Assembly: GCA_045537795.1 (NCBI GenBank) | Contig: JAZSQE010000033.1 | Location: 17,469 to 81,468, forward strand | Origin: Kiritimatiellia bacterium | GTDB taxonomy: Bacteria > Verrucomicrobiota > Kiritimatiellia > RFP12 > UBA1067 | DNA: 64,000 nt | Direction of reading: 5' to 3' | Shown here: piece after piece, positions 14,856 through 46,151 of the stretch | How the letters are laid out: each line of letters starts with the position of its first letter | How positions within the stretch are numbered: the stretch's first letter is position 1 | The notes under the pieces: generated by a model | Told to the model about the DNA's origin: nothing | Databases searched by the model: none | What the model saw: only the letters and a program-made list of their open reading frames with translations | Program-made: the position numbers and the translations under genes

Positions 14856-16448
14856 TTACAACGATATCGTCTGATTGCGCAGGGCGTTCTTGAACTCGTC
14901 AAACCTAAAAAAGCGCACAGGAACTTCGCCCTGGTAAAGCGTTCGAGGTGAATCAAACCGGAATTTACCCTCGGCGATGTAATCCATCAGTTCTCTCACC
15001 CTTGCGTTCGCCATATAAAGCGGCAGGCGGCGCGTCCGCCCGTCATCATACGAGACAATCAGAATATCGAGAGGCGAAACCTCAAGCGTCGCTGCCCCGC
15101 GCAACGATTTAACGACAGCTCCCGCCGCCGTCTCTATGCGCCAGCGGGCGTTCGTCGAGCGGGGGTCTTCTATAATAAGACGTGTCGTTACGGGTTTAGG
15201 CGGAACGCTCGCGCGATCAAGCCATGCGGGATTGGTAAGAGCGGATGTTTTTACCGCCTGCTGAGGCCCCGAGTGAGGATCGGCAACACCTTCACCGAAT
15301 GCCCGCGCGACAAACCAGCTGTCGCGCTCACGACTTGGGAATTCAAATTCATAAGTCCCTTCCTTGACATTCGTCTTAACCGCACGCACCTCACCGCCGC
15401 GGCCGAGAATTTCCACGAGCGCGAGCTCGCTCTCGCCGGCCGCAGGAGCGGCATACACCGTTACGGATATCTTGCCGCCCTTCTCCTCAAGCTTCAGGAT
15501 CCGCAGATCGGGTCCCGACGACATGACGACATTGAACGATCTTACAGCCGACTTGATTTCGGCCACGCTCGGCGCATGATCGCACGACAAAATGTAATTG
15601 AGAAGCCGCTCATCCTTCTTTCCGATTATACCGTGGGCAGGCGAAGAATCCTGTTCCGCAAGCCCCGGTACGCGATATCCCATGTCGAGAATCGCAAACC
15701 AGAGATTCTGATAATCGCGGTGATACGCGTCATAGCCCATTACCGTAAGCCCGTCTAAACCGCCGTCGGCAAAAAGCTGAACGGGCATATCGGCGGCGAT
15801 ATTGGTCACGAACGGCCCTTTAGGATCACCGTCTTTGGTCCACCAGCTCGTCGGATGGGCCCAGATAGCCAAAGCGCCCGCCTTGCGCTGTTCGGCGACG
15901 ACCTCGCCGTAGCTGCGTCGGATATGAGCCTTTCCGGTCAGAGTATTGATATCGCACGTGGGGTCGTCCAACTCGTCATCCGTGAACGCGGTGCGCCTAT
16001 CCTGGCTGTAATCGTGCCATCCGGAAACGATCGGACTGTAGCCGAGATACCAGATGTGGCCGTAGCGGTTTTTGGGCGTTTCGTTATCGAGAAAAAACGT
16101 CGTCCCTGAACATTCGTTCGAAACGGTCGCGAGCATTGCGCATAAATCCGCCTTATCCACAAAATCCTCTTCCTTAAACTCGCCCGCGTAATAACGGTGG
16201 CGATCCTGACGCTCGCAGCGGATCATCCTCGACGCCTGAAGCGGCGTCCACGGCGAACCGATGCCGAACGCCTTTACGTCGTGCTTGCGAACCCACCGGA
16301 CGAGATTCGAAACCGATGTTTCGAACGGCACGTTCCTTTTGCGGCACATGTGGGAATGCGCGGCGAATGCGACGCGCGGCGACGGCGCTTCGGCAAAAGC
16401 CGCAGTCGAGAATAAAACGGCTGTACCGATCAGCAGAATCCTTTTCAT
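14856..16448 (-). CDS. Secreted PHP/CehA-McbA-like metallohydrolase-domain protein (tentative)
   Basis: Signal peptide. The AAHSHMC (HxH), YGHIWYLGY and AIWAHPTSWW pattern is reminiscent of PHP-type metal sites. ATGA overlap with the upstream stop at 16445-16448. The function call is weak. Confidence 0.4.
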   Translation of the reverse strand: MKRILLIGTAVLFSTAAFAEAPSPRVAFAAHSHMCRKRNVPFETSVSNLVRWVRKHDVKAFGIGSPWTPLQASRMIRCERQDRHRYYAGEFKEEDFVDKADLCAMLATVSNECSGTTFFLDNETPKNRYGHIWYLGYSPIVSGWHDYSQDRRTAFTDDELDDPTCDINTLTGKAHIRRSYGEVVAEQRKAGALAIWAHPTSWWTKDGDPKGPFVTNIAADMPVQLFADGGLDGLTVMGYDAYHRDYQNLWFAILDMGYRVPGLAEQDSSPAHGIIGKKDERLLNYILSCDHAPSVAEIKSAVRSFNVVMSSGPDLRILKLEEKGGKISVTVYAAPAAGESELALVEILGRGGEVRAVKTNVKEGTYEFEFPSRERDSWFVARAFGEGVADPHSGPQQAVKTSALTNPAWLDRASVPPKPVTTRLIIEDPRSTNARWRIETAAGAVVKSLRGAATLEVSPLDILIVSYDDGRTRRLPLYMANARVRELMDYIAEGKFRFDSPRTLYQGEVPVRFFRFDEFKNALRNQTISL

Positions 16449-18871
16449 GGCTTAACCCAATAACCGGGCAATGTGCGAATATCGTCGGCGGGTTTACGGT
16501 TGTATACACGCTCCGGAACCTTGTATCCTTCGGGTAAAATATAGGCTAAAACCGCCGCCGGCGGAAGAATCGTCTCCCAAACGGTATACTCGCTGGCGGC
16601 AACGGAGTATCTCTCGATATTTGCGTAACGTCTCCAGATCGGCCATGCACCGAGGTTGTCGAAGCCGTAAACGAGTTTCTTCGCATCCTGATTTACACCG
16701 AACGTCCAGCGGTACGGAGTAATACCGGCGACATATTCTCCGATATTGTCCGCGTAACTTTGGAGATCCAGAAACTTAACCGGATAGACGACTCCGAGTC
16801 CGCTCGTAAGAGTTTCCCCTTTGGGGTTGACGCCGTTATGGAAATCGTTGGCAAGGTAAACGCCTTCAAGAAAACGGCTGTCTCCGGTGCATGCGTGAGC
16901 GTAAACGAGCGTCTGAGCGCGGCGCATCGGGTGGCAGTTCCCCCAGCTCATCGTGTGGACATATCCGTGATCGCTGCGGAACCACGACGTGCGGTACGGA
17001 TACGCCTCTTCGAGATTCTTGAGCATACTTTCCGCCTCGTTGATTCTGCGGCGCTTGAAATTCTTCGCGTACTTCTCGATCTCGGGAACAAGCGGCTGAT
17101 CCTTGAGAGCGAACTCCATAAGCTCGTAACCGTTCCACCCCCATGACGATTTATTCGTCTCGTGATTAAGCTTATCGATGCGCTTAACGACAGAATCGAA
17201 ATATTCGGTCTTGCCGGTCATCGCGGAAAGATTGAGCGCGGCCGTGAGCATAAGTTTTACGGAATAATTCCCGTCTTCCCTGAAAACGACGTCGACTGCG
17301 TTTTCGGGAATCCATCTGCGGCTGGCGAAACTCTTCATCTTCTTCTCGACGGGCGGATTGCGCTCGGCCCAGCGCCAGGCGCGTTCCGCACGCTCAAGAA
17401 GCTTCCGGGCGATTTTCTCCTTGCCGGCCGCGCGGTACGCCCGGGCGACAAGAGCGACGGTGCCCGCAAAATCATAGCACGAGTTGTGTGTCGGTATAGC
17501 GATAAAATAAATATGGTTTGTGCTGTCGCGCTCGGGGCCGTCATATTCGCCGCCGGGATGGCCGGTAGTCTCGATCCACGTTCCAACGCCGCCGTCTGCT
17601 TGCTGAGCCTTTATCAGATGACGGACACCCCATAGCGCTTCGTCGAGAATATCAGGAATACCGTTGCCGGACTCGGGAATCGAAAGCTGGCCGTCAAAAA
17701 ACTTGGCGGGATTCATGAGATAAACGAGCGACAGAGCGCGCGGGATTATCAGGTGCATGGGACGACGGTCGTAGTCCGCCGCGTCATGATAGCCGCCAGG
17801 CAGATGAAGCACATTATTCGTGTCGCACATCCCCATGCTGGCTTTGATCGTCGGAAAATGCTTGAACTTGTGAGGCTTTCTGTTCTTATCGACGATCGGC
17901 TTGCCGTCGGCGGGAAACATCATTGAACCGTAAGTCCACTCGTCCGGAGGATGAACGCCGCGATAAACGTTCATGTGACAGGCATCCGCCGTCCACTGCG
18001 TCCACGGAGGACGCTTCTCGATGCCGCAGCGCTTATTGAAAAGGCCCTGCATGTGAATACCCCACGCCTCAACTATCGCCTCGTCCGAAACCTTAAACGG
18101 CATGCTGGAGCCGATGCCGTCGATCACGATGCGGTATTCGCCTTCGTCGGAGAGCTTCGTTAGATCGGCCTCGAGAACCTCCTCGCCCGTAAATGGCGTA
18201 TCCTTTGTTTTCGGATCTTCGCGCCGAAGAGCGAGAGAGCCTTCAAGTCTGACGCTGCCGCCCGCGTTATCCACGACGCGGAACTTCACTGCGTCGAAAC
18301 TTTTGAGCGGCAACGCGCCCGAAAGACCGAGCCACATTCCGACATACGCATACTTGCGGGCTTTCGGCGCATAGCCAACCTGATTGACCTTGATGACGGG
18401 CGTGGGGATGGCGGGATCGTAGGTGAACTTACCCGCGACGCCCAAATCTACAACCGTACCTCTCTTCATTTTCGGCACTTTGACGAAAGCGTTATGGATG
18501 ACATCCGCCCCCCAAACCACAATCCGTCTGCCATCCTTCTCGACATAGCGTTTAACGCCGTTCGCTTCCTGCCAATAGGAGATAAAACCTTTTATCGTTT
18601 TCATCTTTTCGACAAGTGCCTGCCTGACGTTCTTTTCGACATCGCGCTGGATTTCGTTGCGCTTTCTGGCTTTCTGCCAATCCTGCCATGTAGGTTTGAT
18701 ATCCTCCTGCCGGCTGTCGGCGTAAAATGCTACCCTTTCATCATCGGAGCCGTCAGCCTGAACGAGAATATATTCCGGCGTAAGCGCGGTGATCTTCCAT
18801 TTCACTTCGCCGTGAACGAAAGGCGCTAAGGAAAAAGCCGCAACAATGACTAAAAGTTTTTTCATATCCAT
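16445..18871 (-). CDS. Glycoside hydrolase family 9-like enzyme with N-terminal Ig-like domain
   Basis: IKVNQVGYAPKARKYAYVG. LPGGYHDAADYDRRPMH (the DAGD position reads DAAD). GNGIPDILDEALW matches the same block in the 1138-aa GH9 (GNGIPDIVDEAIW). Signal peptide MKKLLVIVAAFSLAPFVHG. Confidence 0.65.
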   Translation of the reverse strand: MDMKKLLVIVAAFSLAPFVHGEVKWKITALTPEYILVQADGSDDERVAFYADSRQEDIKPTWQDWQKARKRNEIQRDVEKNVRQALVEKMKTIKGFISYWQEANGVKRYVEKDGRRIVVWGADVIHNAFVKVPKMKRGTVVDLGVAGKFTYDPAIPTPVIKVNQVGYAPKARKYAYVGMWLGLSGALPLKSFDAVKFRVVDNAGGSVRLEGSLALRREDPKTKDTPFTGEEVLEADLTKLSDEGEYRIVIDGIGSSMPFKVSDEAIVEAWGIHMQGLFNKRCGIEKRPPWTQWTADACHMNVYRGVHPPDEWTYGSMMFPADGKPIVDKNRKPHKFKHFPTIKASMGMCDTNNVLHLPGGYHDAADYDRRPMHLIIPRALSLVYLMNPAKFFDGQLSIPESGNGIPDILDEALWGVRHLIKAQQADGGVGTWIETTGHPGGEYDGPERDSTNHIYFIAIPTHNSCYDFAGTVALVARAYRAAGKEKIARKLLERAERAWRWAERNPPVEKKMKSFASRRWIPENAVDVVFREDGNYSVKLMLTAALNLSAMTGKTEYFDSVVKRIDKLNHETNKSSWGWNGYELMEFALKDQPLVPEIEKYAKNFKRRRINEAESMLKNLEEAYPYRTSWFRSDHGYVHTMSWGNCHPMRRAQTLVYAHACTGDSRFLEGVYLANDFHNGVNPKGETLTSGLGVVYPVKFLDLQSYADNIGEYVAGITPYRWTFGVNQDAKKLVYGFDNLGAWPIWRRYANIERYSVAASEYTVWETILPPAAVLAYILPEGYKVPERVYNRKPADDIRTLPGYWVKP

Positions 18872-18879
18872 AGCCTTTC

Positions 18880-21864
18880 TTAACGAATGATAACGAGCAG
18901 ACCCTCGGGGTGCAACTTAGGCTCCTGGGCTCCGACATAATTCGGATAACCGCCAACGGCCGCCGAAAACGGATAATCACCCTTTCGGGCTCTCGGCCTC
19001 ATAAAATCAGGCGAATTTACATCCGACGACATAAAGCGCGTCGCTTCTGTAATTACGGTATTGTTCTCAACTTTCAGGCCCTTGGAAAGATCATATCCTT
19101 CAAGCGACAAAGCAATGCCCGCGACAAAATTATCAGCCATATAAACGTTGTTTGTAAATGCGGCTCCTCCGTCGGTTTTAAATGACGAAAAAGTATCTGT
19201 GTTGAATTTGGGTTCATCCTCCTGGAACAAAGAGCCTCCTGGAGCCAACAGAACAAGATTATCATAAATTTTCGGCCGCCAAGGAGACCGAACATCTCTG
19301 GCGACGCGGACAAAATTCGTAGATCCTACAACGGTATTGTGGTGAATAAAAACATTCTCATGCAATCCGTCATGCTCTTTCGTAAGAAACGGCTCTCCAT
19401 ATTCCGTAATGAATGTGTTATATGCAATCTCCGCATGAGGCAATTCATTATATCCTCCAGAATTTGAATACATGGAACGACAATTTACCATCCTGTTCGA
19501 TATAAACGTAAAATCACAGGTCAACTGCTTGACCGGATAATACATCCAATAGCAATTGGTAAACACATTCTTTATAATTTCAGTATCCTTGCCGCACTTA
19601 ATAGTCATCATATCATAACCGGGTGTCCGACCCTCAAAGCGACAGTTAACAACTTTAAGATATAGTCCATATTTTTCACGTGCATCGACTACATCCTTGG
19701 TTGCTCTCGTCGCCACTGCACAATGTCCAACCTCGCCTCGCGAAGGATTTTTCATTTCCCCTTCCTGAACAAATACACAGTTAGAAACAATGGCATAGTC
19801 CCCGTAAACATCAATGACCCGACCCTTATCACCAAGAGACTGATCAGCATATTTCCCGTTATTATTCCCGTAATAAGTAAAATCAAATCCGGTAATTGTT
19901 ACATGATTTACATCTTCCGCAATCGTAATGACCGAGGGATTGTTGGTGTTTGCGTTAAGCGACGGATCAATGTCGACTTTGACGCGACCAAAACCTTCCT
20001 CCTGAGTTAAAAGAACATTGCTGAAATTAAACTGCACCAAATCGTCCACCGTAACAATATTATACACGCGATCGTCACCGCCCTTCACGTGCACTACGCC
20101 GTTTTCGCCGCAAACCGCTACTCCCTCACGAATCGTTCTTAAAGGTTTTTCCTTTGACCCGTCTCCGCCATTATCTGCAAGAGCATCGACATAAACATTT
20201 TCAAGGCTTACAACTATAGCATCAGAAACCAACGGCATTGTAAGTATTTTACCTGTACCATTATCTTTCACGCGAACACTTGGGAAATAAACACCTGGCT
20301 TCGCATAAACATAAGACACTGATCTCTCGACGCCCGTTTGATCGTATTGCCCATCACCGTCAAAGTCCCACTGAACCTCAACTTCCCCTGCATTTTGCGA
20401 GTAACCTACTGTAAATGTAGCGCTTACAGGCGCGAAAAGCGAATCATATTCAACAGCAAAATTATCAATCTGAAAATACGCCCCCGCTTCCGCTTCAATC
20501 GCCTTAGGCGGAACGGCTCCTATGTACTCTCCTTGATAGCCCTCGGCTCCGGTCGCTTGAAAAATCCACGGATATTTAGTCGAATTGATGCGGTAAAAAT
20601 CTTCACTCGTTATATCTGTTGTATTAAGGAACTCGGGCACAACTGCTAATTGAAGATTGTCCTCGCAGATCAGGCCCTCTCCTTGAAGATCGTATCCATC
20701 TAAAAGGCTCGCCGAGCCGCCAGAAAATGCCTGCGCGAAATACGCATTGCCCGTCATCAGCGGCTTGTAGACAACTTTATCTAATTTTTGCGTCACAAAC
20801 GACGTCGAAAATGAACCTAAGGAATCATTCTCCATCTCCTTTAAGACAACACCGCCCTCCTTAAGAACGATCAGATTATCGAACGCCCACGGCGTCCATT
20901 TTTTTTGAGACATATCCTCTACATAAATAAAACTTTCACATCCGACAACTGTATTATGATGAATCTTCGGCACCTTATTCATACCGCCGCCGTTGTTGCA
21001 GATAAACGCAGTCGTCGAACCGATAAAGATGTTGTACGCTACTTCTGCACTGCCGATTTCATTGTAATTTCCGCCTCTGGTGTTTATAGGATTGCTGCAA
21101 TTCACGACGCGATTGGAAATAAAAGATCCGCCTGACGTTTGCTTCATGGCGTTCATATAATCACCGGCACAATTCTTAAACACATTTCTGATAACTTCAG
21201 AATCAGATCCGATTCTCACGATTTTTTCATCCTCAAAACCGACTCCCTCAAACCAGCAATCGGAAACCGTCATGCTTGTTGCCTTTTTCCCTCCTTCCGG
21301 CGTCTCATTATAAATGACACCGCCGCCGGAAACATAACTGCTGTTTCGTCCGCTTCCATCCCCTTCATGACGAAACTCGCATCCCGTCACGGTACATCTG
21401 TGTCCATTAACGGAAACAACCCGCCCCGACTTGCCAAGTGAATTGCCTTCTCTTTGCTGCGTATTCACTGAATAATACTTAAACGAGAGATTTCTTATCG
21501 TGCAATCATCCGCTCCTTCCGTTATCGCAAACACCTTAGGATCATCGACATTCAAATTTGCACTTAAAGCACTTGAAATTTCCACAAGCGGTTTTACATC
21601 ACCCCATGCGCGAATTGTCATGCCGGTAGCGGTGACAGTTACTAAATCATCTTCGCCGTCAATCAAATGATTGCCCTTTACAAAAACGGTACTTGTCTCT
21701 TCCGTCAACAAGTTCGCCGCATTCACCGCCGCTGCTATCGTTTTATACGCAGACTCCTGCTTGCCGTTAGGCGTTTCTGCCGTCGACGAAGCATCGACGT
21801 AAATGTCAGCGGCAAAAGCCGGTATCGCAAAACCGAACGCCAATACAATACATAATTTTTTCAT
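18880..21864 (-). CDS. Secreted tandem right-handed beta-helix protein with central PKD domain (polysaccharide lyase/hydrolase-like)
   Basis: Start taken at MKKLCIVLAFGFAIPAFA (ATG 21864). Two collinear modules share IYVDA.../VYVDA..., FISNRVVNC/FISNRMVNC, IHHNTVVG x2 and FDNLIVL/YDNLVLL. The PKD-like block is VQWDFDGDGQYDQTGVERSVSYVYAKPGVYFPSVRVKDN. Confidence 0.65.
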   Translation of the reverse strand: MKKLCIVLAFGFAIPAFAADIYVDASSTAETPNGKQESAYKTIAAAVNAANLLTEETSTVFVKGNHLIDGEDDLVTVTATGMTIRAWGDVKPLVEISSALSANLNVDDPKVFAITEGADDCTIRNLSFKYYSVNTQQREGNSLGKSGRVVSVNGHRCTVTGCEFRHEGDGSGRNSSYVSGGGVIYNETPEGGKKATSMTVSDCWFEGVGFEDEKIVRIGSDSEVIRNVFKNCAGDYMNAMKQTSGGSFISNRVVNCSNPINTRGGNYNEIGSAEVAYNIFIGSTTAFICNNGGGMNKVPKIHHNTVVGCESFIYVEDMSQKKWTPWAFDNLIVLKEGGVVLKEMENDSLGSFSTSFVTQKLDKVVYKPLMTGNAYFAQAFSGGSASLLDGYDLQGEGLICEDNLQLAVVPEFLNTTDITSEDFYRINSTKYPWIFQATGAEGYQGEYIGAVPPKAIEAEAGAYFQIDNFAVEYDSLFAPVSATFTVGYSQNAGEVEVQWDFDGDGQYDQTGVERSVSYVYAKPGVYFPSVRVKDNGTGKILTMPLVSDAIVVSLENVYVDALADNGGDGSKEKPLRTIREGVAVCGENGVVHVKGGDDRVYNIVTVDDLVQFNFSNVLLTQEEGFGRVKVDIDPSLNANTNNPSVITIAEDVNHVTITGFDFTYYGNNNGKYADQSLGDKGRVIDVYGDYAIVSNCVFVQEGEMKNPSRGEVGHCAVATRATKDVVDAREKYGLYLKVVNCRFEGRTPGYDMMTIKCGKDTEIIKNVFTNCYWMYYPVKQLTCDFTFISNRMVNCRSMYSNSGGYNELPHAEIAYNTFITEYGEPFLTKEHDGLHENVFIHHNTVVGSTNFVRVARDVRSPWRPKIYDNLVLLAPGGSLFQEDEPKFNTDTFSSFKTDGGAAFTNNVYMADNFVAGIALSLEGYDLSKGLKVENNTVITEATRFMSSDVNSPDFMRPRARKGDYPFSAAVGGYPNYVGAQEPKLHPEGLLVIIR

Positions 21865-21914
21865 AACATTGCTATCCCATAGGCGGAATAGAACCCTTTC
21901 TTTGAATGTCACTT

Positions 21915-21923
21915 ATTGTATCA
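21915..21923 (-). promoter_or_regulatory. Extended -10 element TGATACAAT upstream of the beta-helix gene
   Basis: The minus strand reads ...gttaTGaTACAATaagtgac..., about 50 nt upstream of ATG 21864, inside the 85-nt gap after the GH127 stop. Confidence 0.35.
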
Positions 21924-21949
21924 TAACATAACAGCAGCGGCGCGCCGGT

Positions 21950-23845
21950 TTATTCGTACGGTTCGAGTTCTACGGGGAACCATGTACGGTAATAGTTGTC
22001 GCGCATCCACGTGTTGCCGGCCGACGCGTAATCGCAGAAGAATACGGTCGTAGGCAGGCTCCCTTCCGGATTTTCGTGGTGCGAACCCATGTCAAGCGTC
22101 GCCGAAAAAGCCATCCACATCGCATCGCAGGGCGTGCGCACCGCACAGAAGCCGCCCATCCGCTGTCCGTCGCGGATTCCCCTGCGCAAAGGCTCCGTGA
22201 GATCTCCGTCGCCGAAACGGCTGTCTCGCGCCATAAGAACGGGCCCGCGGGTGAACGCGACATATCTGTCGAGCCTGTGCGCCACGACTGGCATGTCGAA
22301 ATGTATTTCAACGACATCCCCGTATTTCCATTCGTGCGAAAGCGTGAAATATTCACCCGGCTTCACCCCCGGAAGGTTCTTGCCGTTGAGCCTGACGCTC
22401 GTGCGGTCGCTCCACGCGGGAATGCGCAGCTTCACGGCAACGGTACCCGCCCCTTCTGTGTGGCTGACTATGCGCGCGAAGTTGCCGCGGGGATACAGCG
22501 AATACATATCGAACGCGACGCTCTTGCCGTCAGGCAAGGTTCCTTTGACGAGAGCCGACGAATAAAAATTGAAAACCGCCGCGGCGTCCTTCATCTTGAA
22601 GAACTCCTTGAGAAAGCAGAGATAACCGCGCGACCCGTTCGCCGTGCAGCAGTCGGTGTGCATGTAGCAGTGGTGCATGCCGTGCCAGCGGTTCCCGGAA
22701 AGCGGCGTGTACGCCGCAAACTCCCCGCCGTCCGCCCTGAGCGCGCCGAGATACGCGTTGTAGAACGTGCGCTCGAGCTGATCGGCCCATTTCGGATCGC
22801 CCGTCACGTTCAGAAGTTTTTCGCACAAGCGCATCCACGTCGTCGTCACGCACGTCTCCTGAAGCCGCGTATACGCGATATGCTGTTTCCTCGCCCCGTG
22901 AAACCATGCTTCGCTCGACGCGCAGCCTCCGGCGAGATTCACCTCCTCGCGGATGATATCCTCGCCCGTCTTTATCGCGGCCTCGATGAGATCCTTGTGG
23001 CCGGCGACTTCGCCGTATTCGAGAAGCCCCTGATAGCAGCTCATCATTTCGTAGGCCTTCCAGCGGTTGTGCTTCATCACGTACCCCTTGTGCCTGTCGA
23101 CCTTGTTGCCATGACCGTTGCGGTCGGCGACCGAAACGCCCTTGAGCGCAAGATCCAAAAGCCGCGGACCCGCCGGAGGCTCCGTCATGCCTTTGACGAG
23201 ACAATGCGCAAAATCGAGATAGCGCTTTTCTTTCGTGCGTCCGTAAAGCCACATGACAGGTTCGAGAATCGACGAACTCGCGTAACCCGACCAGTTGCCG
23301 GTCTGCCAGACTTCGCGGCGGCGCCTCCCGCCGGGACCGAGCTCGGCGATCACATAATCACAAAGCCTTTTGCACGCCTCCAGAGCTCGCTGAGCGCTCT
23401 CTGAACCGCGCTTCGCGTCATAATAATGCAAAAGCCCCATCATCGTGTATTTCATGCCCCAGACGTCCCACCCTTCGCCGCAGCGGAGCTCTTCGGGATA
23501 ATTGCCTATGTACCCTGAAGGCTCCTGCGTCGAAAGAATGCGTCTTATGCCGCGCTCGACGGAAGTCTTGAGTTTTCCGCTTTCGGCATATTCGAGATAC
23601 GGCATCGCCGAATGCATCCATTTGCCCCAGAACTCGGTCTGCCAGCGCCACTGTCTTTCGGTCTTTTCGAAAAACGGCGCCGTGATGTAGTCGACATCGC
23701 GAGCGGCGACGTGGTTTTCAATCATCCTGTCAAGTCTGTCCCCGAGATACCCCTTGAGCTTGACATCTCCCAGATCCGCGAAAGATGCAAATGCGGCGAG
23801 AACAATCTGAGCGAAAATGGCTTTTTTGTACTTGATGCCGATCAT
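21950..23845 (-). CDS. GH127-like (DUF1680, beta-L-arabinofuranosidase family) glycoside hydrolase
   Basis: LQETCVTTTW and HTDCCTANGSRG correspond to the Cys-rich Zn/catalytic motifs of GH127 as I recall them (ETC..., CC..N). Length 631 aa. N-terminal hydrophobic signal. Confidence 0.6.
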   Translation of the reverse strand: MIGIKYKKAIFAQIVLAAFASFADLGDVKLKGYLGDRLDRMIENHVAARDVDYITAPFFEKTERQWRWQTEFWGKWMHSAMPYLEYAESGKLKTSVERGIRRILSTQEPSGYIGNYPEELRCGEGWDVWGMKYTMMGLLHYYDAKRGSESAQRALEACKRLCDYVIAELGPGGRRRREVWQTGNWSGYASSSILEPVMWLYGRTKEKRYLDFAHCLVKGMTEPPAGPRLLDLALKGVSVADRNGHGNKVDRHKGYVMKHNRWKAYEMMSCYQGLLEYGEVAGHKDLIEAAIKTGEDIIREEVNLAGGCASSEAWFHGARKQHIAYTRLQETCVTTTWMRLCEKLLNVTGDPKWADQLERTFYNAYLGALRADGGEFAAYTPLSGNRWHGMHHCYMHTDCCTANGSRGYLCFLKEFFKMKDAAAVFNFYSSALVKGTLPDGKSVAFDMYSLYPRGNFARIVSHTEGAGTVAVKLRIPAWSDRTSVRLNGKNLPGVKPGEYFTLSHEWKYGDVVEIHFDMPVVAHRLDRYVAFTRGPVLMARDSRFGDGDLTEPLRRGIRDGQRMGGFCAVRTPCDAMWMAFSATLDMGSHHENPEGSLPTTVFFCDYASAGNTWMRDNYYRTWFPVELEPYE

Positions 23846-25921: not shown

Positions 25922-27217
25922 TCACCTGCCCGCGAGATTGCGTATGCGCTGCGAGGTGCGTACGGCGCAAAACTCCTTGCCGCACATCGAGCAATGGTCG
26001 TCGCAATGCTTCTCGCCGGCGAATGCTCTCGTTCTGAGCCACCGCTCGCGCGCCCGCTCGGGGTCGAGCGAAAGAGCGAACTGTCTCTCCCAGTCAAACG
26101 CCGCGCGTGCGTCGGACATTGCATCGTCGCGTTCGCGCGCGCCGGGAAGAGCGCGCGCGACATCGCCCGCGTGCGCCGCTATTTTGTAGGCGATACATCC
26201 GCGATGCACTTCGTCGCCGTCCGGGAGTCCCAAATGCTCGGCGGGCGTCACGTAGCACAGAAGCGACGCTCCATACACCGCGGCGGCCGTCGCGCCGATG
26301 GCGCTCGTAATGTGGTCGGAGCCGGGGGCGATGTCGGTCACCACGGGGCCCAGCACGTAGAACGGAGCTCCCTTGCAGACCGTCTGTTCGCGCTCCATGT
26401 TCTCGCGTATCTGATTGAACGGCACGTGCCCCGGCCCTTCGACCATGACCTGCACGCCGCGCGCGCGGCAGCGCTCGACAAGTTCGCCGAGAACGTCGAG
26501 TTCGCCGAACTGCGCCGCATCCGAAGCGTCGGCGAGACATCCGGGGCGCATTCCGTCGCCGAGCGAAACTGTAACATCGTATCTGGCCAGAATCTCGAGA
26601 ACCTCGTCCCAGCGCGTATAAAGAGGGTTCTCGAGGCGATTTTCCATCATCCATTCGGCCATAATCGCCCCGCCCCGGCTTACGATACCCATCTTGCGGT
26701 TCATCGCCGCGGGGATGTCCTTCAGCAGAAGCCCTGCGTGAAGCGTCATGAAATCGACCCCCTGCTCGGCCTGCTCGCGGATGACGTCAAGAAGGAGAAC
26801 GGGATTCATGCGGGGCATGTCGCCTTTGAGGCGCGAAATCGTCTCGTATACGGGGACTGTTCCCAAGGGCTTGGGACTGGCGTCGAGCATCCCTTTGCGA
26901 ATCGCCTTCACGTCGTCGCCGACGGAGAGGTCCATCACGAAGTCGGCGCCCGCCTTGAGGGCGATATCGAGTTTTTCGAGTTCGTCGCCTTTTCCCGAAT
27001 GTGTCACGCTGCGTCCGAGGTTGGCGTTGATTTTGGTCGCAAACATACGTCCTACGCCGACGGGCCGCGCATTTTTATGATTGATATTGAGCGGAATTAC
27101 CGCCGTTCCTTCGGCGACGGCCGCTGCGACGGCATCGACCGGGACGTTTTCTTCCGAAGCGACGATTCGCATCGCTTCGGTTACGATGCCCTTGCGGGCA
27201 GACTCCATCTGCGTCAT
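25922..27217 (-). CDS. thiC: Phosphomethylpyrimidine synthase ThiC
   Basis: MTQMESARKGIVTEAMR... Full-length collinearity with ThiC, including C-terminal CSMCGKEFCAVR (the Fe-S Cys motif). Preceded by a TPP riboswitch. Confidence 0.95.
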   Translation of the reverse strand: MTQMESARKGIVTEAMRIVASEENVPVDAVAAAVAEGTAVIPLNINHKNARPVGVGRMFATKINANLGRSVTHSGKGDELEKLDIALKAGADFVMDLSVGDDVKAIRKGMLDASPKPLGTVPVYETISRLKGDMPRMNPVLLLDVIREQAEQGVDFMTLHAGLLLKDIPAAMNRKMGIVSRGGAIMAEWMMENRLENPLYTRWDEVLEILARYDVTVSLGDGMRPGCLADASDAAQFGELDVLGELVERCRARGVQVMVEGPGHVPFNQIRENMEREQTVCKGAPFYVLGPVVTDIAPGSDHITSAIGATAAAVYGASLLCYVTPAEHLGLPDGDEVHRGCIAYKIAAHAGDVARALPGARERDDAMSDARAAFDWERQFALSLDPERARERWLRTRAFAGEKHCDDHCSMCGKEFCAVRTSQRIRNLAGR

Positions 27218-27227
27218 TTCATTTCCT

Positions 27228-27310
27228 CCGCAGGTATTACCCTGATCAGGTTTTACGGGTATTTTCTCAGCACCCGGACCCCATGTCCGGCAGCACCCCG
27301 ATACTGGCGA
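27228..27310 (-). promoter_or_regulatory. TPP (THI-box) riboswitch controlling thiC
   Basis: The minus strand reads ...GGGGUGCUGCCGGACAUGGGGUCCGGGUGCUGAGAAAAUACCCGUAAAACCUGAUCAGGGUAAUACCUGCGGAGGAAAUGA. It has the CUGAGA, ACCUGAUC and UAAUACC signature elements. The SD GGAGG is part of the 3' stem region. Confidence 0.9.
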
Positions 27311-27312
27311 TC

Positions 27313-27321
27313 ATTATATCA
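27313..27321 (-). promoter_or_regulatory. Extended -10 (TGATATAAT) of the thiC/riboswitch promoter
   Basis: The minus strand reads ...gaatttaTGaTATAATgatcgccagtatcGGGGUGC, which places a transcription start a few nt before the riboswitch. Confidence 0.5.
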
Positions 27322-27372
27322 TAAATTCCCGTCGCGATAAATTCACCGCTCCCGTCACGCGACTACCCTCCA

Positions 27373-28587
27373 TCACGATAAATTCACCGCGCTATCGCGC
27401 AAAATCCCCCTCCCGTCACGCGAAAGATTCTCTCCGCCCTGCTTTCGATATCCAATCTTCATGAATCGCCTCCACCACTTTGATTTATTCCGCACTGTAA
27501 TCTCATTTTTGTACCGTTCCCGCCAGACAGCAAGAGTAGTCGCCTCCTCCACCCGCGCAGGATCGAGAAAGGCGTCGATCCTCTCCATCATCTGCGTCGC
27601 GCCGCGCACGCCTTCTGCAAGTTCGCGATAAATCGCAATCGCCCTCAAGACCTTCTCGTCCGGAACCCTGCTTTTCGAATCGGAGACATTCTTGTTTCCA
27701 TCGGGAGAATCTTCCCCGACGAGCACCGCTTCCGCAGGTTGCGGATCTTGAAGCTCCGTCAACTGCTTCAACTTCTTTGCGGCCGCTTTATAGCGCATAA
27801 TGGTCGTATACTTGCAGACCAAAACAGGGATATTGTCGGCGAGCCATCCTTTCACGCCTTGGTTGCGGCCGATTATCCGCCCTTCCGCGAAGCGAAGAGA
27901 ATTATCAACATAACATTCAAGGTCGTGTATCATGCTCCCGAACCGTATCGCGGCTTCTTTTGAATCCTTACGATGAATATACGCCTCGAGAACGGCCTCT
28001 TTCGTCGGACAGACATTGACCGTCGTACGCTTGACAATGCGACGCCGATCTGCGGCCAGCGCCCGTCGACGCGCAGTTTCGCGCTCGTAATAAAGCGGCC
28101 GAATCGCGCGATGCTTCAAATTGGCGAGTGCCATACCGGCAAGTGTCGTTATCAATTCAAGTGTGCAGCAACTTGCCACTGCGCCGACGTTGAGCGTCAA
28201 TATAAAATGCATCAGTATAAGCGCCGAGACGATGTCGGTGAAACGCGGCAATCTTGGAGCGTTTTGGCCTGAAAGCTTAAAATACCGCTGCGCCGTTTTA
28301 CGAACCCAGACATCTGTCGCCATTTCAAACGCCATTTCCATTGAGGAAAACCCGTTTTCGCGCCAAGAAATCGCCCGACCCTCGGTGGCCTCGCACAAAT
28401 CACCGAATGCCCGTGCGAGAGCACGGTTGCGATTCTGGCGCCGCTGCCAACGATGCTCCTCACGCCTATCTCGCTCAGCCATAATTTCACGCTCGGCAAG
28501 CAGATAACGAGCCATCCAGCGATGATATTCAACATCTGTCATTTCAACGCAAGACGCTTTATTGCGGGAGAATTTATTTGTTTGCAT
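27373..28587 (-). CDS. Hypothetical protein (405 aa), no recognisable family
   Basis: Start chosen at ATG 28587 (MQTNKFSRNK) with SD GAGGG 6 nt upstream. The ORF-track start at 28695 is a TTG lying upstream of a predicted promoter. Arg/Glu-rich N-region, one hydrophobic stretch (IVSALILMHFILTLNVGAVASCC). Visibly lower GC than its neighbours. Confidence 0.6.
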   Translation of the reverse strand: MQTNKFSRNKASCVEMTDVEYHRWMARYLLAEREIMAERDRREEHRWQRRQNRNRALARAFGDLCEATEGRAISWRENGFSSMEMAFEMATDVWVRKTAQRYFKLSGQNAPRLPRFTDIVSALILMHFILTLNVGAVASCCTLELITTLAGMALANLKHRAIRPLYYERETARRRALAADRRRIVKRTTVNVCPTKEAVLEAYIHRKDSKEAAIRFGSMIHDLECYVDNSLRFAEGRIIGRNQGVKGWLADNIPVLVCKYTTIMRYKAAAKKLKQLTELQDPQPAEAVLVGEDSPDGNKNVSDSKSRVPDEKVLRAIAIYRELAEGVRGATQMMERIDAFLDPARVEEATTLAVWRERYKNEITVRNKSKWWRRFMKIGYRKQGGENLSRDGRGILRDSAVNLS

Positions 28588-28612: not shown

Positions 28613-28641
28613 ATGATAACAAATAGGGCGATGAAAGGCAA
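28613..28641 (-). promoter_or_regulatory. Predicted promoter TTGCCT-17-TATCAT (TG-extended) for the 405-aa orphan gene
   Basis: The minus strand reads ...ggTTGCCTttcatcgccctatttgtTATCATgttgccgaaaacacGAGGGattgatATG. Confidence 0.35.
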
Positions 28642-28768
28642 CCCAAAAATGAGATTACAGTGCGGAATAATCATATACGTCGTATTCGGAAGCAAATGCG
28701 AGAAAACCGTGCATATACTTCAGGTGATGCCGCAATCAAAAAAGACGAGATAAGAACGCCCTAAGGGC

Positions 28769-28885
28769 GACTACTGCTGATGACTACAACGAACGACTAT
28801 GACGGACGACTATGGCGAACGACTACGACGGACGACTACAGAAGATGACTACAACGGACGACTACAGAGGATGACTATGATCGGT
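28769..28885. repeat. Perfectly phased 13-bp x 9 tandem direct repeat (GACTAY-N7)
   Basis: GACTA recurs at 28769, 28782, 28795, 28808, 28821, 28834, 28847, 28860 and 28873 (units gactacaacgaac, gactatgacggac, gactacgacggac ...). A 13-nt period is not a multiple of 3. The array is intergenic between divergent genes. Confidence 0.9.
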
Positions 28886-28899
28886 TGGCGTGGTATAAT
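28871..28899 (+). promoter_or_regulatory. Predicted promoter of the VIT1 gene: extended -10 TGGTATAAT, with the -35 position inside the last 13-bp repeat unit
   Basis: tggtataat at 28891-28899. The hexamer 17 nt upstream is atgact (28871-28876). Only 10 nt (acacgcacat, no SD) separate the -10 from ATG 28910. Confidence 0.5.
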
Positions 28900-28909
28900 A
28901 CACGCACAT

Positions 28910-29785
28910 ATGAAAAACGATACAAAAGAAGAAGCTGTCCTCATTTCACAGCTACGCAATGAATGTACGGAAGCGGCGGTCTACGCCCGGCTCGCAAAAC
29001 TCGAGAAAAATCCGAAAAACAAGGAAATCCTCGAGCGCATCAGCGCCGATGAAGAGTCCCACGCGCGCATCATAGAGGACATTCTCGGCCGCGAGGCCCG
29101 CCCCTTGAACTTCAAGACGACATGGATCGTTTTCTGCGCCCGCGTTTTCGGCGTGACATTCACCCTCAAATCGATGGAGCGCGGCGAAAACACCGCAAGC
29201 ATAACATACCGCAAAATCCTGAAGAATTATCCGCAACTCGAGGTAATCGCAGAAGACGAAGACCGTCACGAGGCGGAACTCATCGAAATGCTCAACGACG
29301 AAAGACTGAACCACATGGGAGCCATCGTTCTCGGTCTCAATGACGCTCTCGTCGAACTTACCGGCGCGCTCGCCGGATTCACGTTCGCGCTTGGTGAGCC
29401 CCTGAAAATCGCGAAACTCGGCCTTATAACCGGATTCGCAGCGGCTATGTCGATGGCGGCGTCCGCGTTTCTTTCGGCCAAGGCCGGCGAAAGCGGTAGC
29501 GGCGAGAAAAACGCCCCGAACAGCGGCGCACTGAAAACGGCCGCCTACACCGGCATCGCGTATATCCTCACGGTACTTGTTCTGGTCGCACCGTACGCGC
29601 TTGTCCCGAACGCGACGTCAGCGCTCGCGGCAATGCTCCTTTCCGCGTTAGGCATCATCGCGTTTTTCAATTTTTATCTGAGCGTAGCGCGCGGGACGTC
29701 CTTCTTCCGAGGGTTTTCCGTGATGGCGGGAATCTCCACTCTCGTCGCGCTCATATCGTACGCCTTCGGATATTTCCTGCGCTGA
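28910..29785 (+). CDS. VIT1/CCC1-family Fe/Mn transporter with N-terminal ferritin/rubrerythrin-like domain
   Basis: EAAVYARLAKLE...ISADEESHARIIE (ferritin-like). MGAIVLGLNDALVELTGALAG plus C-terminal TM helices (VIT1 domain). ATG 28910 is used because the longer track ORF (28799) reads through the 13-bp array. Confidence 0.75.
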   Translation: MKNDTKEEAVLISQLRNECTEAAVYARLAKLEKNPKNKEILERISADEESHARIIEDILGREARPLNFKTTWIVFCARVFGVTFTLKSMERGENTASITYRKILKNYPQLEVIAEDEDRHEAELIEMLNDERLNHMGAIVLGLNDALVELTGALAGFTFALGEPLKIAKLGLITGFAAAMSMAASAFLSAKAGESGSGEKNAPNSGALKTAAYTGIAYILTVLVLVAPYALVPNATSALAAMLLSALGIIAFFNFYLSVARGTSFFRGFSVMAGISTLVALISYAFGYFLR

Positions 29786-43211: not shown

Positions 43212-44476
43212 CCGCCGCAGTAAAGCGGCAACTGGAAGTCCTGATAAAGGAACCAGGCGAGCGCCGCGATCGCGACAGATGCGGCGATTTCAACGATTAC
43301 ACCGAGCGCCGAAGCCCAGCCGGGGACATCGCTGTTCTGCGCCGTATCGACGGGCGGGAGCGGCGCGACAGGAATATCGGGAATATCGGGAATATCCGCT
43401 ATGTCGGCGCCGGCGGCGGACGCCGCAGGTTTTTCCTCAACCTGTGTCGAGGTCTGCGCGCCCGATGTTTTTGGACCGGGACGTTTAACGCCGAACTTGC
43501 CGGCGGGTCTTACGCCGGCCGCGCCGGGGCGTGTGATTTTAAGAGTCTTGCGCTGCGTGATCGTCGGCGAAGCGGCGGTAGGCGCGGCCGCTGGCGCGGC
43601 GGCGGGAGCCTCAGAAGAAAGGACGCTCTTCGCATCGCTTTTCTCCGTGGGCATGGGCGGCACTGGCGCATCGACGGGCGCCGGCACGGCGGCCGGAGCG
43701 GCAGCGGCGCCGGACGGCGGCTGCGGAGCGAGCGGTTTCGTCGCGCCTGGGATATCGATGGGACGCTTGATGCGGATCGTCTTCATCGGGGCGCTCTCGT
43801 TCTTGACGGGAGCGACGCCCATCGCGTCGGAAAGCGAGATGCGCGCGGTCTTCGATTTCGCGGCCTGCTTCTGCGAATCGCTCATCGCCGCGTCGGAAAT
43901 TATGCCCGTTTTATGGAGAATCGCCTGCGCGGGGATCTGCTGGGTGATGCCTTTGAGCTTCTGAGTGACGGATTTGAGAGCTTCCATCGGCTTTGGCATT
44001 TCGGTCACGACGGGCGCGGTATCGTCACGCGGCACCGCCTTGGCATCGACCGTGGGGAGCTTGCCCACGCCTTGCGCGTCGACCGCCACCGGTTTCGGCA
44101 CCGGCACGGAAGAAACCGTTTCTCCCGGCTTGCGGATGACGGGTTTCGGCGGGAGTTTGAGCCCCGGTCTGAGCGCCGACTGCGTAGCGCCGGCCGCAGG
44201 CGCCGCGCCGGGTTTCGGCGGGAGTTTGAGCCCAGGCCTGAGAGCCGACACCGTCGCCCCCGTCTTGGGCGGAAGCTTCAACCCCGAAGGGAGGCCGGGC
44301 TTCGTCGGGAGCTTGAGCCCCGGTCGGAGCGCCGACTGCGTAGCGCCCGCTACCGGCTTGCGCACGACAGGATTCAGCTTCAGCGTCTTCACCCCTTCGG
44401 CAACCGGCTTTGCCGTCGGATCTGCCTTCGGAGGCTGCGCCTCGCTGATGGGACTTGCCTGGTTTTCTTCTGCCAT
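43202..44476 (-). CDS. Pro/Ala/Lys-rich repeat protein with a single C-terminal TM helix
   Basis: ALRPGLKLPPKPG-type unit repeated about 4 times. DIPDIPDIP. Recurring K-T-[IL]-[KR]-[IL] motifs. C-terminal WASALGVIVEIAASVAIAALAWFLY then ...LYCGGCM*. 10-nt overlap with the downstream permease gene. Confidence 0.6.
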   Translation of the reverse strand: MAEENQASPISEAQPPKADPTAKPVAEGVKTLKLNPVVRKPVAGATQSALRPGLKLPTKPGLPSGLKLPPKTGATVSALRPGLKLPPKPGAAPAAGATQSALRPGLKLPPKPVIRKPGETVSSVPVPKPVAVDAQGVGKLPTVDAKAVPRDDTAPVVTEMPKPMEALKSVTQKLKGITQQIPAQAILHKTGIISDAAMSDSQKQAAKSKTARISLSDAMGVAPVKNESAPMKTIRIKRPIDIPGATKPLAPQPPSGAAAAPAAVPAPVDAPVPPMPTEKSDAKSVLSSEAPAAAPAAAPTAASPTITQRKTLKITRPGAAGVRPAGKFGVKRPGPKTSGAQTSTQVEEKPAASAAGADIADIPDIPDIPVAPLPPVDTAQNSDVPGWASALGVIVEIAASVAIAALAWFLYQDFQLPLYCGGCM

Positions 44477-46075: not shown

Positions 46076-46151
46076 ACAGGATTAACAGGATTTACAAGAT
46101 TCTTGCAGTGTGCAAGTGTTTTCAGAGATTTCATAATCCTGATAATCCTGT
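46076..46151. repeat. Composite inverted repeat built from four CAGGATT heptamers (17-bp arms, 42-nt spacer)
   Basis: acaggattaacaggatt (46076-46092) matches the reverse complement of aatcctgataatcctgt (46135-46151) at 16/17. The spacer contains the small palindrome cttgca-gtg-tgcaag (46102-46116). It lies in the 420-bp pyrH-parB spacer. Confidence 0.8.

Follow-up and report, generated by a model that had tools for sequence, protein, structure and literature searches.

Arrays of short direct repeats beside a single gene are found in plasmids, both as the iterons that go with a Rep gene (P1 incC/incA, F ori2/incC, R6K, RK2) and as the type II parC of R1 or pB171, while single genes framed by inverted repeats (IRs) are found in insertion sequences and in Hin-type invertible segments. 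The locus described here has features of both arrangements. It lies in a stretch of 64,000 nucleotides from a Kiritimatiellia bacterium (contig JAZSQE010000033.1), the whole of which is called the window, and consists of a gapless tandem array of nine 13-bp units (28769-28885) placed between the promoter of an exporter gene, VIT1, and a gene for a 404-aa protein (27373-28587, minus strand), called here the family gene. At the level of sequence, the comparison of related loci shows the array to be an instance of a recurrent class of boundary arrays that belongs to a dispersed, IR-bearing single-gene module, and not a VIT1 device.

Described systems with comparable arrangements

Plasmid iterons share with the arrays of this class a conserved core, variable columns and an element-specific sequence, as well as a position upstream and/or downstream of one gene, with one array reaching a promoter. 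However, iteron units are 17-22 bp long and have a pitch of ~22 bp, whereas the unit is 13 bp here (11-30 bp in the class) and has no spacer. Iterons belong to a winged-helix Rep in a plasmid setting; no such fold is found here and the setting is chromosomal. Furthermore, they are accompanied by a DnaA box and an AT-rich element, whereas at this locus there is no box and, on informal inspection, no clear AT-rich element. In the type II parC of R1 or pB171, about ten contiguous short direct repeats overlap a promoter -35, as in the window, and are coated cooperatively by the small protein ParR. In contrast, the neighbours in the window are the family gene, VIT1, thiC and pdxS, with no genes of the ParM/ParR type, the promoter concerned is that of an unrelated housekeeping gene, and the 13-bp unit is not helically phased.

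The bracket formed by the IRs recalls other systems. Like an insertion sequence, the module is a single gene within IRs of 24-27 nt, the left arm abutting the -35 and the right arm lying in the 3' end of the open reading frame (ORF), and it occurs in multiple contexts, as copies 90-96% identical that have unrelated flanks and a sharp left boundary at the IR. The differences are that no transposase family or fold (DDE, HUH, serine, tyrosine, DEDD) is recognised, that the right arm is internal, that no target-site duplication is evident at the boundaries compared and that the family gene has flanking tandem arrays, which to our knowledge are not a feature of insertion sequences. Hin-type invertible segments (hixL/hixR) measure ~1 kb and have 26-bp IRs with a gene and its promoter inside; the segment studied here is similar, being 1.13 kb long, with promoter and gene, a perfect 27-nt IR and arms that evolve in concert. 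Unlike Hin-type segments, it shows no flipped gene segment with shared flanks among 80 loci, no serine or tyrosine recombinase fold and no conserved frame beyond the left arm. Finally, intergenic minisatellites, or variable-number tandem repeats (VNTRs), are comparable for their head-to-tail units, their differences of copy number in close strains and their dimer structure, whereas the arrays described here are tied to one gene family and absent from the farther flanks. By analogy, the arrangement of the array would be most like iterons or parC, and the IR bracket would resemble an insertion sequence or a Hin-type segment.

The array had first been noticed in an earlier note, which knew of no described element of this form. 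This judgement stands, since the array departs from iterons, parC, CRISPR and contingency loci in features by which each of these is defined. In fact, contiguous 13-bp units with 4-7 variable positions are not the 23-50 bp repeats with unique spacers of a CRISPR, and units matching at 75%, in an array that is neither in an ORF nor between -35 and -10, do not have the properties of a contingency locus.

The tandem array of the window

Nine GACTA cores follow each other at an exact spacing of 13 nt, without gaps, from 28769 to 28885. On the plus strand the unit can be written GACTAY-NNNN-RAY, which is RTY-NNNN-RTAGTC on the strand of the family gene. The nine units are GACTAC-TGCT-GAT (start at 28769), GACTAC-AACG-AAC (28782), GACTAT-GACG-GAC (28795), GACTAT-GGCG-AAC (28808), GACTAC-GACG-GAC (28821), GACTAC-AGAA-GAT (28834), GACTAC-AACG-GAC (28847), GACTAC-AGAG-GAT (28860) and GACTAT-GATC-GGT (28873), and they are combined in a 26-bp higher-order structure. 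Tandem Repeats Finder (TRF) calls the array at 28782-28877, with period 13, 7.4 copies and 75% matches, and also gives the higher-order form of period 26. The earlier description of a nine-unit, exactly phased and spacer-free array is thus confirmed both by the GACTA positions and by TRF.

Columns 1-5 of the unit are invariant (9/9), while the remaining eight columns require at least 12 independent changes; rough arithmetic, with 13 rotations allowed for, gives P ~0.04 for such invariance by chance. The longest exact repeat in the array is ~12 nt. The degenerate unit GACTAYNNNNGAY has 7 matches in the window against 0.94 expected, 6 of these being within the array, and a scan for 5-mers recurring at a fixed period (8-45 nt, at least four recurrences) returned it as the single array in the 64 kb. 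The earlier note had proposed to look for further arrays of the motif. The window contains no second copy, and a scan for three RAYGACTAY units in 185,579 species genomes of bacteria and archaea (one per species) gave 31 matches, none of them in Kiritimatiellae. All 31 are unrelated near-perfect 13-bp VNTRs of other phyla, without the design of invariant core and variable spacer, and a wider family of GACTA arrays was rejected.

Arrays accompany a gene family

The gene facing the other end of the array had been considered an orphan and, at the same time, a possible partner of the array. The first of these views has to be abandoned, given that the protein has more than 455 homologues in a database clustered at 90%, and that its family amounts to 610 clusters at 50% identity (E<=0.001); the homologues that bear a name are all "hypothetical protein [Kiritimatiellae bacterium]". 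The second view has gained ground, since comparative data link such arrays to this family.

A total of 80 related loci were fetched from metagenomes, 76 of which remained after the removal of duplicates. Arrays were called by TRF with thresholds of at least 10 for the period and at least 3.5 for the copies, and a near-gene zone was defined as the 600 bp upstream or the 350 bp downstream of the gene. In the 76 loci, 33 arrays fall in the 58 kb near the family gene and 0 in the 154 kb of farther flank, and the enrichment holds in DNA free of long ORFs (P=3.6e-5). Where both flanks are available, an array is present at 21/48 loci with strict and at 32/48 with relaxed TRF settings. The upstream arrays finish 100-334 bp ahead of the start codon, with one exception that overlaps it, and the downstream ones begin from 33 bp before to 191 bp after the end of the gene as mapped by tblastn. 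The periods are of 11-30 bp, mostly not multiples of three, with 4-17 copies. The array sequences are specific to each locus, with units made of conserved blocks and variable columns, often in an alternating two-unit order. The genes facing the arrays may be divergent, convergent or co-directional and belong to no conserved family. These comparisons show that arrays of this kind, as far as sequence can tell, go with the family gene, on either side of it and whatever the neighbouring gene.

Unit length appears to depend on the clade. Among the closest relatives of the window, L040 has an upstream array of 14 bp x 17, L036, L039 and L041 have downstream arrays of 15 bp, and L120 (77%) has a downstream array of 14 bp with at least 10 copies. 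Across the six loci of this clade the unit lengths are therefore 13, 14, 14, 15, 15 and 15 bp, with unrelated sequences, and a rough estimate for six out of six falling within one 3-bp band is ~1e-3. In the other large clade units are mostly of 18-23 bp, and of 11-30 bp overall.

Close relatives allow the behaviour of single arrays to be followed. An array with a 12-bp unit has 7.6, 8.6 and 9.6 copies in loci whose genes are 98-99.5% identical, and at 92-93% gene identity the copies are 8.6 vs 4.8 and ~8 vs 4.5, with the core unchanged. The cores CGTGTAGGGA and AGGGAGACC are intact at 80-85% gene identity, where the other columns differ; over the range of 80-93%, CGTGTAGGGA is shared by L042, L059 and L071, and ATCCTT by L082 and L105. 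Furthermore, a segment of ~21 bp that occurs once in the upstream region of L066 is present in four copies at the homologous place in L047 (genes 91.5% identical), therefore arrays arise in place.

Some possible sources of the units were rejected. Seeding from sequences internal to the gene or from the IR was discarded, matches to the own gene being no better than with shuffles, with the sole exception of arrays that start inside the tail; the 80% match of unit 1 to 27525-27544 was rejected as a seed along with it. The proposal that the upstream and downstream arrays of one locus are inverted transposon ends was also rejected, their consensus units being no more alike than shuffles.

Several contigs with the family gene have one of their ends within an array or at its edge (L036-L038 at position 1, L120 at 1572-1713, L090, L042). 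Three independent assemblies (L036-L038) start 124 bp upstream of the same gene, and most members of the family are on contigs of 1-4 kb. Short-read assemblies are probably broken by the arrays or by the dispersed gene.

The VIT1 gene as a neighbour

The VIT1 gene (28910-29785, plus strand) encodes a predicted MbfA-like Er-VIT1 protein, with a rubrerythrin/ferritin-like domain followed by a VIT1 domain. In Pfam, Rubrerythrin matches residues 15-96 (29 bits, cut-off 22.8) and VIT1 residues 137-192 (30.3 bits, cut-off 28.1), and the protein has the architecture of the Er-VIT1/MbfA type, with an N-terminal ferritin-like and a C-terminal VIT1 domain. Its relatives are named Kiritimatiellae VIT1/CCC1 family proteins. 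Exporters of the MbfA type are regulated by metals in other bacteria, as in the control of mbfA by Irr in rhizobia.

A scan for promoters of the sigma-70 type places the VIT1 promoter at 28871-28899 (plus strand), with ATGACT (28871-28876), a spacer of 17 nt, TATAAT (28894-28899) and a TG at 28891-28892. Of the -35 hexamer, 2 nt belong to the end of unit 8 and 4 nt to the beginning of unit 9. The ATG, at 28910, is 10 nt past the -10, and the corresponding distance is of 9 nt in the orthologues L001 (TGGTATAAT) and L004 (TGGTATACT). Because the -10/ATG spacing is conserved in L001 and L004, the prediction of a leaderless VIT1 mRNA is supported. The earlier note had the last unit overlapping the -35 of a leaderless-type promoter; this is correct, with the hexamer lying across units 8 and 9.

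Starts at 28799 (328 aa) and 28877 (302 aa) are also available to this ORF, and the gene call in the database (P0001, 302 aa) begins at an ATG within unit 9. Both are N-terminal over-extensions. Many of the 120 best VIT1 homologues have 286-294 aa, the 291-aa form is covered from residue one, and the closest homologue, P0002, has 291 aa; 28910 is most likely the true start. The earlier view that the ORF reading through the array from 28799 is spurious agrees with the alignment of the homologues from the 291-aa start. Arrays of this kind can therefore cause a false N-terminal extension of neighbouring genes, VIT1 being called here 11 or 37 codons too long.

The orthologous loci separate the gene from the array. 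In L001 (86% VIT1 orthologue) the promoter is CTGACA-17-TATAAT, with the same extended -10 and without repeats, and the orthologues L002 (78%) and L004 (76%) are likewise repeat-free. The same extended -10 promoter is kept in L001 and L004, two of the three orthologous loci examined. Since orthologues free of the array keep the VIT1 promoter, the TGAC of the window is ancestral and the array was added upstream. In agreement with the alignment of the two promoters, unit 9 shares with L001 TGAC-A and 7 of the next 13 positions. On these comparative grounds the Er-VIT1 gene stands next to the array without being a partner of this class of arrays.

The inverted repeats and the layout of the module

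The earlier note had missed a perfect 27-nt inverted repeat that brackets the family gene, with arms at 28644-28670 (IR-L) and 27485-27511 (IR-R). IR-L adjoins the -35 of the family gene on its upstream side, whereas IR-R lies within the codons for KNEITVRNK, 37 codons ahead of the stop; the 1132 nt between the arms contain the promoter and the greater part of the gene. The window has no other copy of this repeat. The predicted promoter of the family gene (28613-28641, minus strand) consists of TTGCCT, 17 nt and TATCAT, with a TG, and its position is conserved in L036, L039, L040, L041, L119 and L120.

An IR of at least 14 nt is present at both positions in 55/69 loci, in most cases of 22-30 nt with 0-3 mismatches. 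The agreement between the arms extends over ~24 positions and is at chance level outside. At five variable positions of the IR, the two arms of a locus share a non-majority base in 6 to 26 of the 49 distinct pairs. Copies with unrelated flanks are 96.5% (L069/L073), 91.5% (L047/L066) and 90.7% (L060/L065) identical at the DNA level, and the homology between copies goes from the outer edge of IR-L to ~10 bp past the stop codon, the arrays being outside this block. Beyond IR-R, homology and conserved codons run for ~25-60 bp. No target-site duplication is evident at the L069/L073 boundaries, for which there is no empty site to compare.

On the minus strand the order of the module is: array, GC hairpin, a spacer of ~85 bp, IR-L, -35/-10, the gene with IR-R, and a variable tail that carries a weak second repeat. 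In the window the array lies upstream of the family gene, with 98 bp between it and the outer end of IR-L and some 130 bp between it and the -35. The terminator-like hairpin between array and gene (28757-28769, minus strand) is CGCCC-TTA-GGGCG followed by TTCTTATCTCGTCTTTTTTG, and in L040 array, GC hairpin and TTCTTAT follow each other in the same way. In L119 (74% homologue), a two-copy 13-bp repeat, GGCGTTCCGTGGC / GGCGTTTCGTGGC, is found upstream of IR-L.

An inversion between the arms that would swap the C-terminal tail was rejected, as the open frame beyond IR-L has a median of 14.5 codons vs 14 for the other frames (P=0.38) and no locus was flipped. A separate segment of ~200 bp, upstream of IR-L, runs one way in L040 (2637-2831) and the other way in L041 (2081-2275), with 72.7% identity on the minus strand; inverted ATCCTAAATTCGGCAGTTG-like boxes lie on both sides of it in L040, which suggests a small invertible element. 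The two orientations show that inversion does occur in these modules.

The family protein is strongly basic and almost entirely alpha-helical. Its invariant motifs are DLECYVDNSL, YTTVMRYKAxAKK and NEITVRNKSxWWRR. Searches of the 404-aa product against Pfam, NCBIfam, PHROG and PADLOC gave no match, and 80 diverse members of the family have no informative Pfam domain. A confident AlphaFold2 model built on 111 sequences (pLDDT 87, pTM 0.74) has long helices and one beta hairpin; Foldseek found no match at E<0.3 in the PDB and BFVD, and a sequence search of the PDB was also empty. As regards a site-specific recombinase, the enclosed gene has no family or fold match and no neighbouring gene is conserved. 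More generally, no partner gene is conserved across loci, the largest family of neighbours being that of 4 closely related loci. The family was not found in 72,556 plasmids, 50,697 phages and IMG/VR, and an origin from plasmids, phages, viral contigs or defence systems was rejected on the lack of matches in those collections or in PADLOC. A full-text search of the literature returned nothing on tandem arrays of Kiritimatiellae or on the family gene. Many fragments of 75-77 aa, mostly C-terminal, are called as genes (P0241, P0245 and cluster mates, on contigs of up to 109 kb), which suggests that frameshifted or split copies of the family gene are frequent.

A possible row of protein-binding sites at the module boundary

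The mechanism that we favour has two steps. The array would grow by stepwise tandem duplication of DNA at the junction between module and flank, 13 bp at first and 26-bp dimers later, and would have been seeded by the part of the VIT1 promoter that holds the ancestral -35 (TGAC). Once formed, it would be retained as a row of protein-binding sites, with a GACTA core every 13 bp. The most likely binder would be the very basic helical protein of the module itself, and the bound protein may form a nucleoprotein block at the boundary of the module. As a side effect, such a block would cover the VIT1 -35 and the region upstream of it, and could modulate the VIT1 promoter. We prefer this mechanism because the GACTA core never varies, orthologous arrays keep their cores and the pitch is specific to the clade. 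That the array is a boundary row of predicted binding sites is a tentative conclusion, plausible on this evidence without being probable.

Several points weigh against it. The protein has no recognisable DNA-binding fold, and binding itself is only predicted. A clear array is present in only about half of the loci. Unrelated arrays stand beside proteins that are ~90% identical (L084/L085; L047/L059), so one specificity cannot explain all of them, unless a variable segment of the protein sets the specificity. The units resemble neither the arms of the IR nor any part of the gene, and the pattern of conserved cores can be explained in part by the duplication of dimers that had already diverged. 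Look-ups of exact proteins (VIT1 with the three choices of start, the family protein and P0131) had none on record, and no same-species sequence was found with which to compare the conservation or the unit number of this array.

A wider proposal, which we regard as possible though still more doubtful, is that the family gene represents a new class of dispersed and perhaps mobile module, the activity of which creates or requires boundary arrays derived from the flank, with a unit length set by the clade (13-15 bp here). If true, a protein-DNA system not described before would be at work, one that remodels the promoters next to each landing site of the module. If the reading of a module with its boundary arrays holds, at least 610 clusters of "hypothetical protein" from gut/rumen-type Kiritimatiellae would be a coherent module and not orphans, and the three linked DNA features of the module (inverted repeats, fixed promoter and boundary arrays) would offer a testable handle on an unknown fold. 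The array of the window would then illustrate that the DNA immediately upstream of two divergent housekeeping promoters, here those of thiC and VIT1, can be rebuilt by a module that lands between them.

Alternative explanations

The alternative that survives best considers the arrays as functionless junction minisatellites, a by-product of a mutational process linked to the module. This process may consist of iterated short target duplications by an enzyme that cuts with a fixed stagger, or of replication slippage at a fork that a tight complex on the inverted repeats has stalled, and the overlap with the VIT1 -35 would exist only because the amplified DNA is the upstream edge of the promoter itself. 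Much of the evidence is compatible with it: array sequences are specific to each locus and unrelated even beside similar proteins, amplification took place in situ in L047 with respect to L066, homology links the last unit to the ancestral -35 region seen in L001, and arrays are found on either side of the module. The higher-order dimer structure is typical of satellites, and a unit length specific to the clade with unrelated sequences fits a fixed stagger. However, the array of the window lies 98 bp outside IR-L, where the homology between the closest copies ends, and therefore does not abut the end of the module; in the large clade the periods span 11-30 bp; the cores of arrays whose genes are 80-93% identical are conserved even as the other columns turn over; and GACTA is invariant in all nine units. 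We consider a pure by-product rather unlikely, and the row of binding sites remains the reading that we prefer.

An RNA explanation would have the array transcribed toward the family gene and terminated at the hairpin, the repeat RNA acting as a sponge or guide for the family protein. The terminator-like hairpin with its T-rich tail does follow the array on the strand of the gene, in the window and in L040, and a TGGTATAAT box precedes the downstream array in L041. Against this, the minus strand shows no site resembling a promoter upstream of the array, folding is no better than for shuffled sequences on either strand (z = -0.5, -1.1), Rfam has no match at the array or in 20 related loci, and the placement of arrays with respect to promoters is inconsistent between loci. 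An RNA element was rejected for the absence of a fold signal on both strands and of an Rfam match, and the sponge or guide is improbable.

The earlier note had raised the possibility of a slipped-strand contingency locus that changes the spacing between divergent promoters. As a phase-variation switch, slippage would alter the number of units and turn one of the two promoters on or off, and in its favour another array of the class does vary between 7.6, 8.6 and 9.6 copies at 98-99.5% identity. Other observations speak against it. Because the array lies upstream of the VIT1 -35, a change of units leaves the -35/-10 spacing intact, and at ~130 bp from the -35 of the family gene it changes no spacing or frame there; furthermore, units only about 75% alike, with a longest exact repeat of ~12 nt, are a poor substrate for slippage. 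Phase variation at this locus is quite improbable.

The earlier note had also proposed a cooperative binding array for a metal-responsive regulator, which in this case would govern the Fe/Mn exporter. The array does touch the VIT1 -35, and metal regulation of this type of exporter elsewhere gives the idea some general support. However, the orthologues at 86%, 78% and 76% have no array, and those at 86% and 76% keep the promoter; the scan of the 185,579 species genomes gave no GACTAY array with a variable spacer, the window has no second array of the motif, and the arrays of other sequence track the family gene and not VIT1. This makes a VIT1 regulator array very improbable. Equally improbable is a replication origin, in which the family protein would be an initiator of the Rep type, the array its set of iterons, and both part of an integrated plasmid-like element: the layout does recall P1 or F, where element-specific direct-repeat arrays flank a gene on one or both sides, but the protein lacks a winged-helix Rep fold and gave no hit in Pfam, the PDB or BFVD, the plasmid, phage and IMG/VR collections searched contain no member of the family, the only DnaA-type box TTWTNCACA of the window is at 16153 and none is near the array, the period is 13 bp and not ~22 bp, and the gene sits between housekeeping genes on a 91-kb contig.

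Other features of the window

At the 3' end of the family gene, a weak degenerate repeat (27327-27435, minus strand; CGTGACGGGAG x2, GGTGAATTTATCG x2 and GGGAATTTATGA) covers the variable C-terminal tail and the 3' flank as far as the thiC promoter. The core of this repeat is similar to CGTGTAGGGAG, found in the downstream arrays of L042, L057 and L071, which have 22-bp units. A shared CGTGnnGGGAG core of downstream arrays was considered and dropped, since it occurs in only 4 loci including the window. The thiC promoter with its thiamine pyrophosphate (TPP) riboswitch occupies 27206-27321 on the minus strand, with a predicted extended -10, TGATATAAT, at 27313-27321 and the riboswitch at 27206-27310 (Rfam RF00059, 57.4 bits); TGATATAAT lies 3 nt ahead of the riboswitch match. 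In the window pdxS is one gene away from the family gene, and in L119 the 74% homologue follows immediately on the end of a pdxS-like gene (1-40) and precedes an Fe/Mn superoxide dismutase gene (1677-2276).

Two runs of tandem 9-mers, ACAGGATTA x2.9 at 46076-46101 and ATAATCCTG x2 at 46133-46150, are mutually inverted and 30 bp apart, and together look like a putative composite binding site of a regulator. A perfect tandem repeat of 9 bp x 2.9, GGAATATCG, is found at 43371-43396. The G+C content falls to 0.45-0.48 at 18000-22000, over an ORF of 1010 aa (18880-21912, minus strand), vs ~0.58 elsewhere, and the GC skew changes sign near 8 kb of the window.

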